A DNA stretch of 64,000 nt from Octopus vulgaris (Eukaryota). The position numbers and the translations under genes are program-made. The notes below the pieces were generated by a model, which saw nothing but the letters and a program-made list of their open reading frames with translations, was not told the DNA's origin and did not search any database. This document shows positions 2,591-33,735 of this stretch, piece after piece (position 1 is the stretch's first letter; each line of letters begins with the position of its first letter). The DNA lies in contig OX597820.1 in assembly GCA_951406725.2 (NCBI GenBank), forward strand, positions 84,320,001-84,384,000, written 5' to 3'.

Positions 2591-2742
2591 TTGTGTATAG
2601 AAGAATATATTAATAAAAAGAATTCCAACCTTGTCTGATTTTCACGTTTTATTTACAATCGTATAATGATATATTATAAGATAATATATTATAATTGAAT
2701 AAAATAAAATGAAATAGTAGAATGTTAAATATTCATTCTGAT

Positions 2743-2787
2743 TGAACTAGTACTTTCATGCATTGAATTCTGCAATCTTCGGGTTCA
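2743..2787 (-). ncRNA. Minimal type-I hammerhead ribozyme motif of the PLE 3' region (slightly mutated)
   Basis: Minus strand reads TGAAC-CCGAAGA-T-TGCA-gaattcaa-TGCA-T-GAAA-GTAC-TA-GTTCA: 5-bp stem I, core with U4>C, stem II, palindromic stem III (AGTACT). Confidence 0.8.
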
Positions 2788-3281
2788 TGTAGTAGTGTTG
2801 ACAGTCATGCTTCACAATTTTTGACTGTAGCAAGATGAGTGATTCTGTGCTATAAATACAGCTGGGTAGGCTCCAGAGTGCTAGGTTTTGCAAACTGTAT
2901 TCTGACCAATCAGTGTGTAGTATCACTCAATTACTTAAGCTGATTGGTTGGTTGAGCTGATTGGTTTAGGCATCACGCTTTGTTGGACAGGTCAAGAGTC
3001 CTGTATCTTGACCCTGGCCGAAGCAGCAATTGTTGGGTTATTTTTAGAAATGTTGTAAATATCCTTTGTCAGAGATTTTTATATTTTTATATTTCAATTG
3101 TCATCATCATCATTGTCAGCACCTTAATTATTGTTGCTAGTGGTGATGGTGGTGGCAATAGAACTTTTAACCCTAAACAAGATAATTTTCCTGCTATCTT
3201 CGTCTTGATCACCTTTAGTATTGTTGTTGTTGTTAGTGGTCATGGTCGTAGCAGTGGAAGTAATACCTCTAAGTATTATTA

Positions 3282-4382
3282 TTATTGCTTATTTAGCTTG
3301 GGTTCGAATTTATCAATAAAATTCTTTTCTCTGATTTTCCTCTCGATTTCACTTGGGCTGTGTAATTTGTAGAATGGAAATATTATATATATTTTCCGAC
3401 CACATGTTGCTAGGTGGTTACTCAAAGGTATCTGACGGACCTCTGGGTCTCTAATCTGTTGCCGGTGTACACGTGAGCGTTCTAATAGTGCGTTTCCCGT
3501 CTGACCTACATATATTTCTTCACAATTTGGGCATTTGATGCAGTAAATTAAATTTCTGCTTTTGCAGTTCATATTCGCGTTTGTGAATATTTTCCCGGTT
3601 TTTGTGTTTATATATTGACCGGTATGTATGAATTGGCATGTGCCACATCGGCTATCATTGCATTTAGATACCGTGAATGTTTGGTCTTTGTTGCTGAGGT
3701 CAAAGTTTGCCTTTGTTAGTAATGTTTTCAAGTTTTTAGGCTGTCTTTTACTAAGCACCATAGCTCGATCCTTGATTATGTCTTTTAATTCATTACTTTG
3801 GGCAATGATTGGTAGGTTTGCTTTGGCAATGTTGAAGATATTCTGGTGACATGGGTTGTGTGTCACTATGAATGGTATGACTTGTTCTTGTTTTCCTCTT
3901 CCTTGGGTTGTCCTAAGTTGTTGTATAGGTATTTTTATAGCCCGCTGTATGCCATTTTCTATAAGTAGAGATGGGTATTTTTGTTTGAGCAAAAATTCTC
4001 TTAGTTCTATTAGGCGTTTGTTCCTGATATTTGCATCTTCTACAATAGTACAAATTCTTCTGGCTAGGCAGTATGGGATGTTACGTTTTGTATGTGGTGG
4101 ATGGCACGACTTAAAATTTAGGTATTAATGTGTGTCTGTGTGTTTATAGTATATATCTGTGGTGATGGTGGTGTCTTTTTTAATTACCATTATATCCAGG
4201 AATGGTAATTTGGTACTACTCATCTCCTTTGTAAATTTGAGAGATGGGTGTAGGTTGTTCAGGAGGATATTGAACTCTTCCAGAGTATTTAGAGATTCTG
4301 TCCAGATTATGAAACAGTCGCCTAGGTATCTCTTCCATGCCTTTTCAATATACTTTCTAAATCCAGTGCCATAGTTTACCAT
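3282..4382 (-). pseudogene. PLE reverse transcriptase/GIY-YIG ORF remnant
   Basis: ORFs 4125-4382 and 3282-3992 are in one frame, split by a TAA at 4125-4127. Catalytic YLDD reads YLGD. N-terminal RT is missing. Confidence 0.9.
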
Positions 4383-12233: not shown

Positions 12234-13036
12234 ATGTGTGCATTACGTAGTCGGTCGATTCAGCTGAAAATGTGCACACCTATGTTAAAAGAGTTGGCAA
12301 GTTTGCATGACAACTATTTTTTTCCTCAAATGAAAGGCGTGACCTCTAGGACAACATTCCTAATCTTATAAAATGTGGACCCAGTAGACCCGAATGAAAT
12401 CGGGTTATATTAACCAAAATGTGAAAAGGGGTCTAAATGGGGCTGGAAGGGGATTAAAATTCCAAGGAGCGGGTGTTTAGGAATTCTCTGTTACATCAAG
12501 CTAAAAAAGTTGCGCCAGCCTTTTAATCGTCAATGTGTTGCCGTCCATGATAAAGAAGTTTTGAATGCTTGCCATGGTGAGTCTACTGTCGTGAGAAAGA
12601 ATCACTTCAAAACTTGGTGTTTACGAATTTTCTTTTACATCAAGTTCAAAATTTTACGCCAGCCGTTAAACTGTCAATACGTTGTGTGCGTCGTTAAGAA
12701 ATGCCAGTCATGGTGACTCTACTATCCTCAGATTCTATCCCTTCAAACTTTGGTTTCCAATATTTTATTATTTTTATTCAGCTCGCAAGTTCGTCTGTCC
12801 CTTTTAAATGTTAGCGTTTTGCTGTCTGCCTTGAAGCAGACCTTTCCGTTGCCACTGCCTGATATTTATGATTGATCTTTCTAAATATTTTATTTCTCAA
12901 CTTACTCAAGATCTTCTGTTGTTTATAAATGGGAGAGAGATAGAGAGTAAGAGAAAGCGAGGGAGAGTCCGAGAAAAAAGAAAAGTAAGAGAGTGGGAAA
13001 GTGAGAGAGAAAGGAGAGAGAAACAAAGACGGAGAA

Positions 13037-13347
13037 TCATCATCATCATCATCGTTTAACGTCCGTTTTCCGTGCTAGCACGGGTTGGACAGTGTGATCG
13101 GGGTCTGGGAAGCCAGGAGGCTGCACCAGGCTCCAGTCTGATCTGGCAGTGTTTCTACAGGTTGATGACCTTCCTAACGCCAACCACTCTGTGAGTGTAG
13201 TGGGTACTTTTTTCGTGCCGCCGGCACAGGTGCCAGGGGAGCTCGCAGCGACAACGATCGTTTGGTGCTTTTTACGTGCCACCGGCAAAGAAGCAAGTCA
13301 AGGCGACGCTGCAATCGGCCACGTTCGCATGGTGCTTTTTACGTGCT
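13037..13347 (-). mobile_element. SINE/LINE 3'-end-type repeat with (GAT)n tail
   Basis: (CAT)n-cgtttaacgtccgttttcc...ccttcctaacgccaacc, GC-richer than the flanks, with internal subrepeats (gtgctttttacgtgc). Confidence 0.6.
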
Positions 13348-13413: not shown

Positions 13414-13466
<53 letters not shown>

Positions 13467-13595
13467 GATAAATCTCAGAGCGAGTTATAAACAGTAGCGG
13501 CAACACATCGTGACGTATATTTGCCATTTGAATATGGCTATCCCCTAAGGGTGGATGCTACTGTAGATTGTAGCCCCAGGAAGACACCTCCTCCA

Positions 13596-13700
13596 GCTGG
13601 CTATAGACACACTTTCTGTGCCCTATCAGTATCTGTGAAGGGAGGGATGACTTCCCTTCACAGATACTGATAGGGCACAGAAAGTGTGTCTATAGCCAGC
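13596..13700. repeat. Perfect 48-bp inverted repeat with 9-nt loop
   Basis: 13596-13643 is the exact reverse complement of 13653-13700. Confidence 0.97.
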
Positions 13701-15902: not shown

Positions 15903-17700
15903 TTTTATTAAACATAAGGCCTCTACAAAGATAGGACAATACAAAAACAGACAAAACAATGCAATGGGGGGACATAAAATCACATAGCGAATGAAATTAT
16001 GTATACAATGAAAATTGAGGATAGAATGACTTACCTGCCTCCCATAAGCAGGTACTTCCATTTTACTGGTTTTAAATAAAATTCTACTAATAGTTCACAC
16101 ATCCTGTCTTGCATGTATTGGTTTTCCATTTATTCTTTAAAAAAAAACACAAAGTAGCTATTTACACAATATATTCCAATAAATCTTAGAATGCCACCAC
16201 CGGCGGCAACTCATCGTAACGAAACTGTACCATTGTCACATCTATAGTTTCCTCAAACAACACCTTCAATCTATCTCCTGTTTTTTGTTTGTATGTTTTC
16301 TCTAGCAAAACTTCTTTCATACTTTCATTGTACCCAATCTTTTTTCTATATCTACTCTTTTTGTGAATTGTATCATCGTTCTTAGATTTTTCCTTTTTCG
16401 TGTCACTCTCTGCTTTCTTTCACCAATCTCTACTGTTACTGGTATCCCTTCCTCTGTTTGTCTCTCATTCTCTCTATGATTTTCCTCCTTCTTCTGTACT
16501 CTCTCCTTCTTGCTAGATGTTAGTAACTGTCTCTACGTTTGCTCCTCACTTATATTTGTTGACCTTCCAGTTTTTTTCTGGTCGTTTGTTTTTTCATGTT
16601 TTCCACTCTGCGTCTCCTCTCCCCTGTGCCTGTGTTACTTTTTCTTCCTCTTGACCACTGTATATTATTCTTCCATTTTTACCTCCTCTACGTTTAAACC
16701 CTCTTCTTCTTGATGTTCCTTCTCTATCCCCTCCTCTTCGTGATTCTGGTGGCAGCCATCCTCCATAACACAGAGGACGACGTTCAAATTTTGAAGATTC
16801 CAAGAACTACGGATGTGAACTACAGGGGAATATGGAGTGGAGGTATCGGTTCATAAAAGCTTACCAGACCTCCACAAAATTGCAGAAGACTTTTTAGTTT
16901 TCCGTGTTTATGTTAGGTCTCGATTTGTATTGTCATTACGTGTTGCACTTGTCGAACGAACCTTTTCTGTATAGCCTTATTATGGGTAATAAAGAAATAT
17001 TTGTCGTGAATGTTGTATCGTGTCATTTGATAGCCCGCTGCGTTTGTGTTGTTTTCTCTACATGTGACTGTTGTTACTGCTACATTTTTACTGTTAAACT
17101 GTTATATTACTGAATTGTCGGATTTATTGTATTTATTGTTGCTGGAATTTTATTTTCTTCCCCTGGCTGTCTCCCTCCATTCTCAATATTTGTTGGTACA
17201 TCTTGACACTTAGCTTTCATGTGTCCCCTTACTTCACATAGAAAGCATACTGGAAGTATTCCTTTGAGTACAATTCTCAACCTCATCTCGTCTGATAGTA
17301 CCAATACTTCTGCAATTTTGTGGAGGTCTGGTACGCTTATATGAACCGATAACTCCAGTCCATATCCCCTGTAGCTCACCTCCATAGTTCTTACAATCTT
17401 CAAAAATTTAGTATCGCCCTCTGTGTTATAGAGGATTGCTGTCACCACCCAATCCTCGTCAATTTCTGGGGGCATTCTACCAATCCTTACTCTGACTGCA
17501 CGTTTTTTTCTGTTTTTTCTATAACTTCTTTAGGCGGCGTCAGCCTCAGTGTGTCTCCCCCCATTCTCAATACGTGTTGGTACTTCTTGAAATTAGCTTC
17601 GTTTAGTTCAATTTCTCTAACTTGCAGTATATCTGCTGTTTGCCAGTTACTGCAGCGTAACTGCCTGCTGGTACTAGTTTACCTTCCATAATATTATCCA
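15903..17700 (-). mobile_element. ORF1/gag-like-only retroelement remnant, unit 2 (with CCHC zinc knuckle, internally rearranged)
   Basis: ORF 17107-17475: PPEIDEDWVVTAIL..YRGYGLEL..LSDEMRLRIVLKG..CFLCEVRGHMKAKC; C-terminal FRYDELPPVVAF at ~16190-16240; AATAAAAG end. Confidence 0.72.
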
Positions 17701-17885: not shown

Positions 17886-18712
17886 TCTTTATTACCCATA
17901 ATAAGGCTATACAAAACGAGATCTAACATAAACTGGTAAAACTAAAAGTTAATAAAAGATGACACACGTAAAAAATTTAAGAAACGAATATCATGAAAAT
18001 AATGAAAATGAGACGTAATGCCCACTCGACCTCCAAAGTCGAGTAGTTACATTGCTACATTATTTTATCACAGTCTTTTCTCTTATTCAAAGTTCACATT
18101 ATTTTCCTTCCCCACCCAAAAAAGTCCACAATATTGTATATTTTGAAATTTTTCTCATTCATCAGTTATGTTTTTATATTCCAACACAGACGGCGGGACG
18201 TCTCATAATCAAATTGATTTTATTTCTTTTATCACTTCTCCAAGTTCTCCAAATGTATCTCTAACTCCCGTGTAACTGTCTTTACGTATCATAATCCCTA
18301 TGTCGTCCGTTTCCTATTCTCCTCTGGGCAGTTCCATCCTCACCACTCTTTTCCATTTTGTAATAGTTTTTTTTTCATTTCTATACTCTTTTTATAAACA
18401 AGTTGTATTCCCTTATACTTGCATTCTTCTTCCTTTGATGCTACTTTGGCCGCTTGCACACTTTTAGATTTAAATTCCTTCTCACCTTTCTGTGTCTCCA
18501 TCTTAGTTTTCTTAGACTTTTTTCTTCCTTGTGCCTTTTTTCTTTTGGGGCTCATAAACTTATCACTCCCACCTTTCACTTCACTCCTTTCCTTTTTGTT
18601 GCTGGCTCGCTCGCCATCACTTTTATCTTCTTTCTTTTCTTTATCTTGTTTCTCCTCTTTCTCATATAGCGTAAATTCCGCCAAGGGAAACTGAGCCTTC
18701 ATATGGCCCCGT
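17886..18712 (-). mobile_element. ORF1/gag-like-only retroelement remnant, unit 3 (5'-truncated)
   Basis: Starts in the knuckle (RGHMKAQ), K/E-rich linker, QLVYKKSIEMKKKLL similar to unit 1 NFVTYAKETEKKLL; AATAAAG end. Confidence 0.62.
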
Positions 18713-18952
18713 GCCCCATAAATGTAGCAATTACGTTGAAAGACTACGTAAGATAGTAATCATGTACATTAAAATAAATATAACAAATAATCCAGAATCT
18801 TTGTGCGGTGCAGTGTCGATACCCAAATCTAATATGTTCGTTCCAGTCTCGAGGTCAAACATCCTTGAATGTTTTATCCGAATCCATCCTGCGGTTCTGG
18901 AGATATCTTAAGCACGGACAAATAAACACAACTGTAAAGGCGGAGGTAATAA
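18713..18952 (+). mobile_element. 3' part of a HINE/DINE-like (Helentron-type) non-autonomous element
   Basis: Ends ...ggacaaataaacacaac...aaggcggaggtaat. Possible 5' part (acaagagcactcagagagcgcaaaactccg) at 14047-14077. Family assignment is from recalled architecture only. Confidence 0.4.
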
Positions 18953-25636: not shown

Positions 25637-25822
25637 CGTAATTTAAAATTTTGGGATTATGAATATAAATAGTAAGTATATTATTTAAATTTTACGGCTT
25701 TGTTGAGTTAATATCATTTGGAGTTGATGAAGTTGTGGGTGTTTCTATATCTAACAATATTTTGATAAATATGAATTAATTGTTAAAAGTAATTCAATTT
25801 AATATTTTGAATTCAATAGTTA

Positions 25823-26178
25823 TCGCCAAGCTAATATGGCATTTCAGAAATATAGGACGAATGCTGCCTTTGATTAGCTTCAAGAGGCCATCACCTCCAG
25901 CTAGCTAGGTGACACACGAACCTGTGTCCATTATAACCTTCGAACGGGGGAGGTGTTCGCCGAACCCAGCAGGCGTTGCTACTGACCGTTTGTTCGAAGG
26001 ATTATTTACCTAACTTCAGTGGAATACGTCCACTGCTTTTCTATAAAGACAAAATATTATTATTTCTAAATTTCTCTAAAGGAGATTACGGCAGCGGTAC
26101 TGGATATTAATATTTCTCGCCAAGCTAATATAGCGGTCCAGAAATATAGGACGAATGCTGCCGATGATTAGCTCCAAG
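25823..26178. repeat. ~294-bp unit plus ~60-bp partial tandem copy, structured
   Basis: tcgccaagctaatat..cagaaatataggacgaatgctgcc..gattagct.caag occurs at 25823 and again at 26117. Confidence 0.85.
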
Positions 26179-31745: not shown

Positions 31746-32499
31746 GCAAATAAGATAACATTTGAACGAATCAATTATACCAGCCGAGAAGAAGGAAGAG
31801 TTTGAAGATATTGTAAACCATTCAAACAAAGACAGAGCAGGTCAATAAAATATATCTACACACCAAATAAATAAACAAACAAAAATAGATGATGAAATGA
31901 TACATTCAGCGAAAGAGATTTAAATCATTGCAGCTATTGAAGGATACTAACAGAATATATTTTTGAGAATTCTACGAAGATACGATATTCTTAACGAAGT
32001 TTTACTTCATTGCATACAACTGAGCGATGTCCTGTGGGAAGAATATTAATATATAGTTTTTGATCATATATTTTTTAGCATCGTCATCTTTCACTCCTTT
32101 TTCACGTCTCAATCGGAGTTTGAGATGGATTCAATTTCAGTGACTATAAATTAGTATTAGTATGCTTTATCCTCTTATCCCATACAATATAAACAGAAAA
32201 AGAAATCCAGTAGTCTACCAAGACATCCTCAGTAATGGTAACTGCAAGCATATGTTTCTTTGTTAAAACTTTTGCATCACTTACCCTTTTTGACAAAGTT
32301 TTATAGATAATGAAAGTGAAATGCTCTCCCCGATTTGGTGATAAAAACACAGCAGACTTAATACGTGTATTATGGAATACTGAGAAACGGGAAAAATAAC
32401 ATATATAAATCTTTCTATATCTATCTATTGAACAACATTTATATGTATATATATATTTATATATATATATATATATATGAACAAAAGTAAATATTTATT

Positions 32500-33735
32500 A
32501 TGAAGTACCTTCAAGTGTCACACCTGGGAACATTTGTTTGTTCTCCAGGAATAATTTTACGCAGAGCCATGGCGCTGTGTTCAGTATCGGGTATTTTTGG
32601 TTCAATTCTATTACTTTCACTGAGCTTTAGTTTCCCAGATGAACTCTCTGAACATCCGCTTCATTCTTTTGACAATAACGTAGGCAGAAAATCTACAGGG
32701 AATTCACATCTTGGTGGCTTGCATTCAGTAAGGAAATTTACACGTGTTGCTATGTCAAGCAACGATTACGATGCACGCGCCAATCATTTCCAGCAACAGC
32801 ATTCAAATGAAACTAATTCCACAGTATTTCAACGTTCACGCCTAAAGAGTGGTGTGTTTCAGCAAAGTATAAATTTGCTAGAAAAAGATGAAGTTAACGT
32901 CACAACTGAAGTGGGTATAGTGCCTAAACACTTTCAACAGTATAATAGTGCATTTCTAGTTGTAATTGTATGTAGTCATCCAGAAAGACTGGAGTACCGC
33001 CAAGCAATACGGGAAACATGGGGTTCATCTAGGGGTCAAGAATTTCATGTATTATTTCTAACTGGTAAACACGAAGATCCTTACTGGAATGCATTGATGG
33101 ATAAAGAAAATGCTCTCCACGGTGACATCTTACAAGTGGATGTCATTGATAGTTACAGAAATTTATCTTTGAAGGTCATTGGTGGCCTATGTTGGATAAC
33201 AGACAGTTTCCAAAGTATCGATTACGTCATGAAAACAGACGATGACGTATACATAAATGTTTGGTATTTATTAAAACTTTTGAGAGAAAAAGTAATAAGT
33301 CAACGGCAAATACTTGGGGCTTTGTCGATAATGTCCCCTGTAAAAAGAGACCTGAGGGATCCGTGGGGTGTGAGATTCAGTGAGTTTGCCCCAAAGACGT
33401 ACCCTCCCTATGTATCTGGAGGAGCTTACGTCATGTCACAGAAGGCAGGTAAGAAATTATGTGTGGAAAAATGGAAAAGACAATCGCCTTTTATTCATTT
33501 AGAAGACGTTTATGTAACAGGAATTTTAGCACAGGCAACTGGCATAAGCCATGTGGCACATCCAGGCTTTTCTTTTTGGACAAGTAAAAAGGCTAAGGCT
33601 GCCGATATTGCCAACAACAAAAGAGTGTCAAGTGTTAATATGACACCCGATCAAATTTACAAACTTCACAGACAATCGAACGCTTTACTTGTAAGTACCA
33701 CATCATCGGTAAATTCTAAGAAAGTCGAACGCTGA
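32500..33735 (+). CDS. Beta-1,3-galactosyltransferase-like glycosyltransferase (GT31 / Galactosyl_T), type II Golgi membrane protein, single coding exon
   Basis: Intact 411-aa ORF with RQAIRETWG, HGDIL, DSYRNLSLK, YVMKTDDDVYIN (DxD), YPPYVSGGAYVMS, EDVYVTG and an N-terminal hydrophobic anchor. Alternative start gccATGg at 32569. Confidence 0.95.
   Translation: MKYLQVSHLGTFVCSPGIILRRAMALCSVSGIFGSILLLSLSFSFPDELSEHPLHSFDNNVGRKSTGNSHLGGLHSVRKFTRVAMSSNDYDARANHFQQQHSNETNSTVFQRSRLKSGVFQQSINLLEKDEVNVTTEVGIVPKHFQQYNSAFLVVIVCSHPERLEYRQAIRETWGSSRGQEFHVLFLTGKHEDPYWNALMDKENALHGDILQVDVIDSYRNLSLKVIGGLCWITDSFQSIDYVMKTDDDVYINVWYLLKLLREKVISQRQILGALSIMSPVKRDLRDPWGVRFSEFAPKTYPPYVSGGAYVMSQKAGKKLCVEKWKRQSPFIHLEDVYVTGILAQATGISHVAHPGFSFWTSKKAKAADIANNKRVSSVNMTPDQIYKLHRQSNALLVSTTSSVNSKKVER

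Follow-up and report, generated by a model that had tools for sequence, protein, structure and literature searches.

A covarying RNA fold at the 3′ end of Penelope-type retrozymes in Octopus vulgaris, a likely start signal for reverse transcription

Two loci share an ordered motif that belongs to many-copy repeats

What is the ordered set of short complementary elements that two loci on an Octopus vulgaris contig have in common, and what has kept it? A sequence-only reading of the window, that is, the whole stretch of 64,000 nucleotides analysed here (contig OX597820.1, positions 84,320,001 to 84,384,000), had described the set on the plus strand and proposed a pseudoknotted RNA carried by a mobile repeat, possibly a new ribozyme, an IRES-like element or a structure recognised by a reverse transcriptase (RT). 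We found the elements where they had been placed: GCCA-N8-TGGC at 13523 and 25825, RATGCTRC at 13554 and 25860, TAGCY-N23-RGCTA at 13571 and 25875, and GACAC..GTGYC at 13606 and 25911. A pattern scan of the 64-kb window returned the complete ordered pattern at these two places and nowhere on the reverse strand. In a DNA search the first locus fell into a repeat that we designated family A (at least 48 matches listed; 497 candidates, 40 scored) and the second into family B (at least 51 matches listed; 1899 candidates, 40 scored). Pattern searches of the source genome, which is 2.8 Gb and rich in (TA)n microsatellites, gave 1577, 218, 291 and 299 matches against 0, 0, 43 and 0 in reversed controls, the first figure belonging to the pattern taken from the shared part. 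Because both loci lie in many-copy families and that pattern had no match in its reversed control, their likeness is not due to chance. The pattern searches added groups C, D, E and F and subfamilies of A, for at least six related families in all, a sampling by pattern that may miss more distant ones. Between the medoids of A, B and D, the main groups, identity over the region is 46–59%.

The loci are truncated copies of non-coding retrozymes

On the window's minus strand, the relatives of both loci are monomers joined head to tail with no ORF between them, which rules out an autonomous Penelope-like element (PLE) with an ORF for RT and GIY-YIG domains. Whole monomers measure 333–361 nt (n = 26), with a hammerhead core in 25 of the 26, and arrays are spaced 352–353 nt, in keeping with the tandem monomers of roughly 150–400 nt of non-LTR retrozymes. 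A descriptor scan identified type I hammerheads, with stems I–III present and a palindromic stem III of 1–2 bp, at 16 of 30 family A loci and 6 of 30 family B loci. Rfam Hammerhead_1 (RF00163) matched at three places in one locus, L144 (32.2 bits, E 8e-5, under the cut-off of 34); the scan of three other loci did not report it. The hammerhead sits immediately 5′ of the motif, not on the strand first noted but on the opposite one, and the plus-strand reading was given up accordingly. Both window copies lack it: the family A copy is truncated inside hairpin H1, and the family B insertion has a deletion of ~73 nt, hammerhead included, between its two units (L055 aligns over 1640–1501 and 1427–1345, and its own hammerhead is at 1431). 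There is no protein-coding frame; the longest ATG frame in four representative monomers is 51–81 codons. The features of the two loci are as follows.

13464..13643, minus strand: family A retrozyme copy (locus 1), 5′-truncated inside hairpin H1 and without hammerhead, ending at site 2 against (TA)n
13606..13622, minus strand: hairpin H2 (GACAC..GTGYC), 6 bp, with a G·U pair on the minus strand in family A
13571..13603, minus strand: hairpin H3, outer stem TAGCY/RGCTA, a conserved internal loop and an inner stem of 5–6 bp that absorbs CCTCC
13557..13564, minus strand: 5′ strand of the long-range helix P6, overlapping RATGCTRC
13542..13552, minus strand: hairpin H4, short and with approximate limits, its register varying between families; 2 consensus pairs by RNAalifold, also predicted in a young copy
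13523..13538, minus strand: hairpin H5 (GCCA-N8-TGGC), loop starting YAUU; one two-sided change, C-G to U-A, in family D
13508..13511, minus strand: site 1, the first 3′ end of family A insertions, +12 to +15 after H5; putative first RT start site
13491..13498, minus strand: 3′ strand of P6, within the 'tail' between the two ends and beyond the span first noted
13461..13465, minus strand: site 2, the second 3′ end, +58 to +62 after H5; putative second RT start site, at which the locus 1 copy ends
13644..13700, plus strand: short inverted piece of the same family A element, whose junction generates GGAGG
13415..13464, no strand assigned: (TA)n tract, the insertion target
25811..25954, minus strand: family B retrozyme unit (locus 2) with H2, H3, H4 and H5, ending at site 1
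25959..26178, minus strand: upstream partial unit of the same family B insertion, with P6, H5, tail and spacer

A covariance model of the structure matched locus 1 at 13461–13578, itself a training sequence, and the upstream family B unit at 26059–26176 (E 8e-17), which was not a training sequence. Non-LTR retrozymes are defined by tandem hammerhead monomers without a frame (PMC7229834), and inverted truncated partners, tails and (TA)n targets have been described for PLEs (PMC8557442). Judged by their sequence, both loci are 5′-truncated copies of non-coding, hammerhead-bearing tandem repeats with Penelope-type ends, that is, non-LTR retrozymes or non-autonomous PLEs. The motif is thus the 3′ terminal region of a PLE-type element, a match to a transposable-element terminus that the sequence-only reading had counted against its own proposal. 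The class of element is already known, and the structure is apparently undescribed.

Several other features were seen in and around these loci. Just past the (TA)n tract, at window positions 13036–13346, is another common repeat with an internal direct duplication, found in many of the fetched loci, which we take to be SINE-like. A further short repeat with a hammerhead-like core, noted by eye in the flanks of L002, L006, L014 and L168, often lies across the same (TA)n tracts and suggests more retrozyme families without this fold. Elsewhere in the window, an uninterrupted frame of 414 codons (32491–33735, plus strand) with a galactosyltransferase domain (PF01762, E 5.5e-42) is probably a host gene exon. 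Two minus-strand frames, 17107–17529 and 18340–18759, resemble LINE ORF1-like fragments by eye and also occur in L089 and L125; neither had a Pfam match.

The minus-strand fold covaries across families

We aligned 17 hand-chosen representatives over H2, H3, H5 and a trial 3-bp loop contact. In this first alignment 96.1% of 383 cells were paired, compared with 32–49% in slid registers, and 8 of 23 pairs had changed on both sides, a number reached by 7 of 500 shuffles. H2 was paired in 98% of cells, with one pair changed on both sides and two on one side, and two-sided changes affected one of four pairs in the outer stem of H3 and four of six in its inner stem. The compensatory swap between TAGCC/GGCTA and TAGCT/AGCTA, inferred at the outset from the two loci, was kept across families (C-G 11, U-A 3, U-G 2, unpaired 1; n = 17). 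The 23-nt spacer inside this helix, taken at first for a plain loop, instead forms the inner hairpin of H3 on the minus strand.

The ordered elements are real, but the motif is larger than had been described and continues to ~13464. The added part contains one strand of P6, an 8-bp helix between the RATGCTRC region and a partner in fixed register 23–24 nt after H5, which spans site 1. Among 104 tailed copies, P6 position 3 is A-U in 82 and G-C in 15, position 5 is U-A in 79 and C-G in 15, and position 8 is C-G in 74, U-A in 13 and U·G in 8. In a second set of 17 sequences, covering P6 and H5, 94.1% of 204 cells were paired and 5 of 12 pairs had changed on both sides, four of them among the eight pairs of P6. 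For the share paired, no shuffle of this alignment came up to the observed value; as many changed pairs arose in 26 of 500 shuffles, and as many pair types in 332 of 500. Slid registers gave 15–61% paired over both alignments. RNAalifold predicted H2, H3, H5 and seven of the eight P6 pairs unaided, and the fold of a single young copy again gave H1, H2, H3 and the P6 junction (z −3.12; its complement, −2.33). Consensus folding by family covered three groups, of which the group C result was set aside as a poor mixture. Since the two-sided changes trace to few families, they represent a handful of events rather than 17 independent ones.

The strand is fixed by the position of the hammerhead and not by folding: the minus strand had the better z-score in just 7 of 12 copies, and G·U cells outnumbered A·C cells on the hammerhead strand 19 to 5 in one alignment and were level, 6 to 6, in the other. 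Unpaired bases are conserved as well, in the internal loop of H3 and in the YAUU loop of H5. One pair between the H3 internal loop and an AGYAU segment varies as G-C 63, A-U 21, G-U 7 and A-C 1 (92 copies). This contact, 2–3 bp long and in competition with P6, is probably a single change in the D/F clade, partly shaped by the search patterns, and we treat it only as a lead. Together, covariation across at least six related families and the high copy number of the repeats bear out the proposal of a conserved RNA structure carried by a mobile repeat.

Insertions end at two fixed sites and pair one of each

The 3′ ends of insertions fall at two places. Among 103 family A copies, 39 end at +12 to +15 after H5 and 29 at +58 to +62, most of them into (TA)n, while 25 run on and 10 end elsewhere. 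Family B ends show the same split (n = 35; 16 at +13 to +15, 14 at +64 to +77), as do those matching the family D pattern, which may include E and F copies (n = 37; 12 at +9 to +14, 11 at +69 to +76). Across families, then, insertions end ~13–15 nt after the last hairpin or 45–60 nt further on, and loose ends at site 1 also appear in contigs of other sequencing runs. The 5′ sides are different in kind: of 117 family A copies, 29 run through a whole upstream monomer and the other 88 break off at scattered points, with an inverted piece adjoining 39 of them. A pile-up of 5′ ends at the hammerhead cleavage site was not seen (2 of 88 truncated family A copies). Two 3′ ends bounding a tail, variable 5′ truncation with an adjacent inverted copy, and AT-rich or (TA)n targets in the listed flanks are all Penelope-like features.

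Of 35 back-to-back insertions listed for family A, four rows that repeated two loci were dropped (L080, L094, L095 and L100), leaving 31 distinct insertions. Site 1 was paired with site 2 in 26 of these and with itself in none; among the remainder, three were of the same mixed kind, with ends a few bases outside the bins, one may have site 2 twice and one was unclassified. Independent choice of ends would predict ~49% mixed pairs (P = 6e-5). Inverted insertions of family B (n = 7) comprised four short-plus-long, two short-plus-intermediate and one long-plus-long, and three of four in family D were short-plus-long.

The fold is a likely start signal for a borrowed reverse transcriptase

A covarying fold around two fixed 3′ ends suggests that the minus-strand RNA is a binding and start site for the RT/GIY-YIG protein of a PLE. 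By analogy with the Poseidon PLE of the lizard Anolis carolinensis (PAc), in which the two ends correspond to RT start sites, we read the two octopus ends as start sites and the fold as the signal that positions the enzyme, and we consider this reading likely. Among the three functions first guessed at, recognition by an RT is the one that fits the evidence. Tandem arrays would be transcribed into multimeric or circular RNA, which would fold to give H1-H2-H3 plus a P6-closed junction containing H4, H5 and site 1. A PLE protein supplied in trans, probably as a dimer, would nick both strands of (TA)n DNA; one strand would be primed at site 1 and the other at site 2, giving back-to-back copies with a tail at one end only, and synthesis stopping at variable points would leave them 5′-truncated. 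The structure would persist because any copy without it would fail to serve as a template again. The one-of-each rule would follow if each nicked strand had a single start, which is a step further than the lizard data go. Templates in the form of uncleaved multimers or circles are consistent with the scattered 5′ ends and the long run-throughs. Against this reading are the one family B inverted insertion of seven with two long ends, possibly joined by one family A case, and the lizard study, where start sites were alike on both strands (PMC11167929). Also counting against it are the small number of events behind the two-sided changes, the divided folding evidence on the strand and, among the PLE loci sampled, the failure to find an autonomous element with the structure.

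We also entertain, tentatively, a more specific version: that a ~200-nt RNA scaffold common to a Penelope retrozyme superfamily loads a dimeric telomerase-related RT with one start site per nicked strand, P6 and the hairpins before the sites acting like template-boundary elements, and the 5′ strand of P6 alternately contacting the H3 internal loop as a switch.

The fold might instead serve the life cycle of the RNA, in circularisation, stability or an off-switch for the hammerhead, with the ends set by sequence or spacing rather than by helices. In several A/C-type copies, fragments cut at site 1 do fold the 3′ strand of hammerhead stem I onto the site 1 region, and retrozyme circles are reported to be abundant, their hammerheads probably being blocked in vivo (PMC7229834). 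However, this pairing is not kept in the folded B, D or F copies, and the near absence of 5′ ends at the cleavage site also speaks against such a role. Site 1 stays 13–15 nt from H5 in families that are ~50% identical, and the best-covarying long helix spans it, which leaves this explanation unlikely.

That the signal is read as DNA, through hairpins formed in cDNA or single-stranded DNA, in the manner of the 3′ hairpins of Helitrons, or through promoter elements of a terminal repeat, appears very improbable. Most pairs are Watson-Crick and could form on either strand, and a hairpin 11–15 nt before the 3′ end together with tandem arrays resembles Helitrons. Helitrons, though, have a fixed 5′ TC start and a 3′ hairpin followed by a CTRR end; the 5′ ends here are scattered and the 3′ ends read otherwise, lacking CTRR, which rules out Helitron identity. 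Promoters do lie in PLE terminal repeats (PMC6765202). Yet the G·U excess on the hammerhead strand in one alignment points to RNA, and the combination of a hammerhead, two ends with a tail, inverted 5′-truncated partners and (TA)n targets is characteristic of PLEs (PMC8557442).

A further self-cleaving ribozyme of a new kind, or an element like an IRES, is highly improbable as well. Conserved unpaired bases, the possible 2–3 bp loop contact with its one covarying pair and the lack of a fitting Rfam family could be taken in its favour, but the element already has a ribozyme, the ordinary minimal hammerhead just 5′ of the motif that both window copies have lost, and no long frame follows the motif in the monomers for an IRES to serve. 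In an Rfam scan neither locus matched a ribozyme or IRES family at E up to 5: the 12 and 1 matches to the two loci alone were inverted-repeat microRNA models and weak chance matches, and of 198 matches to the whole window almost all of the 150 listed were microRNA models on microsatellites. The pseudoknot proposed between CCTCC and GGAGG also fails, with both halves present together in 2 of 50 family A and 1 of 25 family B copies. At locus 1, GGAGG is the product of a local inversion junction near 13644, GGAAG being the reading in most A copies. The CCTCC of locus 2 is a change at the level of single copies: in 15 of 25 B copies CCTCT stands with GGAGG. The two segments have local partners, one in H3 and the other in H1. 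Pairing of the CCTCC/GGAGG type downstream of the TAGCY helix looks HDV-like at first sight. The HDV-like P3/L3 needs about 13 nt; in contrast with the HDV-like ribozymes of R2 and RTE elements, the corresponding place here has 4 nt, the pairing is not conserved and there is no Rfam match. HDV-like, twister, pistol and hatchet ribozymes were ruled out, none being among the Rfam matches at E up to 5 and the pseudoknot being unconserved.

Plain common descent of the repeat families with unselected structure is the most improbable account: the families are related along the whole monomer, and related sequences can exceed column shuffles without structure, but two-sided changes occur in five separate helices, the long-range one in fixed register among them, and slid registers pair far less.

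The autonomous partner and neighbouring PLEs

The small samples searched yielded no autonomous PLE whose own terminal repeat contains this structure: nhmmer on 60 PLE-ORF loci matched separate insertions alone, and the covariance model had no match in the repeats of 28 PLE loci. The genome has PLE families in which frames of 717 and of 781 codons remain open. The first, a young family at L249 and L255, has tandem units of ~2.6 kb and a hammerhead-like core before the frame. The second, also young, was seen downstream of the GIY-YIG frame in L400, L405 and L408; its terminal repeat contains CCAAT-like and TGACGTC-like units in tandem, a hammerhead core of the U3-A8 kind also seen in family B, and two 3′ ends ~34 nt apart. 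Besides these two ends it has a similar 7-base word after its own hammerhead, a likeness that may be chance.

Other candidate partners were rejected. Family P1, found beside A copies in L110 and L130, carries a terminal repeat of its own that has two ends but not the motif; a PLE fragment upstream in L122 is a mere neighbour whose relatives lack the motif; and none of the sampled GIY-YIG loci shares the structure. In L110 (1–1900), a P1 3′ region is joined without spacer, via a short inverted piece, to tandem young family A monomers, either as a template-switch chimera or as a nested insertion. The window itself contains the 3′ part of an autonomous-type PLE at 3285–4124 (minus strand), with a GIY-YIG domain (Pfam E 5.7e-6) and a CX4CXXC linker, followed by its own minimal hammerhead at about 2742–2788 (minus strand) and an end in (TA)n; it belongs to a different family without the motif. 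A pattern scan of metagenomes gave two hits under E 0.1 with the family profile among at least 118 loci, both over the searched pattern alone, which we took as chance.

What a start signal would mean

The motif is not a new ribozyme, and its interest lies elsewhere. PLEs are the retroelements closest to telomerase, and in a non-coding parasite, free of coding constraint, covariation shows the helices that the enzyme probably needs. The octopus families offer a short RNA on which two start points are mapped, along with compensatory variants that already exist. They also provide evidence from insertion ends for the copying of animal retrozymes by PLEs, which has so far been argued from co-occurrence and sequence trees. 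Start-site choice and inverted tailed insertions of PLEs have been addressed by a single in vitro study, which leaves later steps unvalidated (PMC11167929). If the scaffold reading is true, the fold would be a structurally defined RT-positioning RNA for the PLE class, of which our literature search found none; it would also supply a rule behind the inverted insertions with one tail and a compact module that directs cargo RNA to a PLE enzyme. We found no description of a covarying RT-start domain in retrozymes or PLE repeats in the open literature; Repbase and Dfam fall outside that scope, so the families may already be catalogued, and the structure in Fig. S2C of PMC11167929 could bear on novelty.

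Comparison with known systems

The hammerheads resemble the minimal PLE hammerheads of Cervera and de la Pena (2014, PMC4209133), being type I with a 1–2 bp stem III and a palindromic loop, and the U3-A8 core variant of family B was described there; the predicted family A1 core differs in carrying C at position 4. Insertions of the Neptune/Naiad-type EN+ PLEs (Craig et al. 2021, PMC8557442) likewise have an inverted 5′-truncated copy at the 5′ end, a tail often at one end only, and (TA)n targets. Unlike those elements the octopus repeats have no ORF, and the one-tail rule, given there in words, is counted here (26 of 31).

The closest relatives in build are the animal non-LTR retrozymes (Cervera and de la Pena 2020, PMC7229834; Li, Clavereau and Pollet 2026, bioRxiv 10.64898/2026.07.22.740005), which are also non-coding tandem monomers of ~350 nt, each with a type I hammerhead and a tiny palindromic stem III, and occur as dispersed monomers and arrays with PLEs proposed as their movers. 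Circular RNA and self-cleavage have been shown for them and are putative in the octopus elements; the accessible text of those reports presents minimum-energy folds and sequence trees, with neither a covariation-backed domain outside the hammerhead nor mapped insertion ends.

The proposed function is modelled on PAc (Frangieh et al. 2024, PMC11167929), whose protein, once purified, makes nicks in both strands of AT-rich DNA and extends them. There, RT begins at two internal positions in the RNA, both matching the genomic tail and one lying in a stem-loop; ~170 nt of RNA around the start sites are needed, the protein is modelled as a dimer, and hammerhead cleavage is dispensable for insertion. 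PAc differs in being autonomous, with its signal lying in the coding frame and described as an AC-rich stem-loop, in its tail (30–40 nt, against 45–60 nt in the octopus elements) and in using its start sites in vitro with no strand difference, whereas here the two ends are nearly always one of each. The overall plan is nonetheless the same in both: a hammerhead, then within about 100–200 nt two sites that bound the tail, and AT-rich targets.
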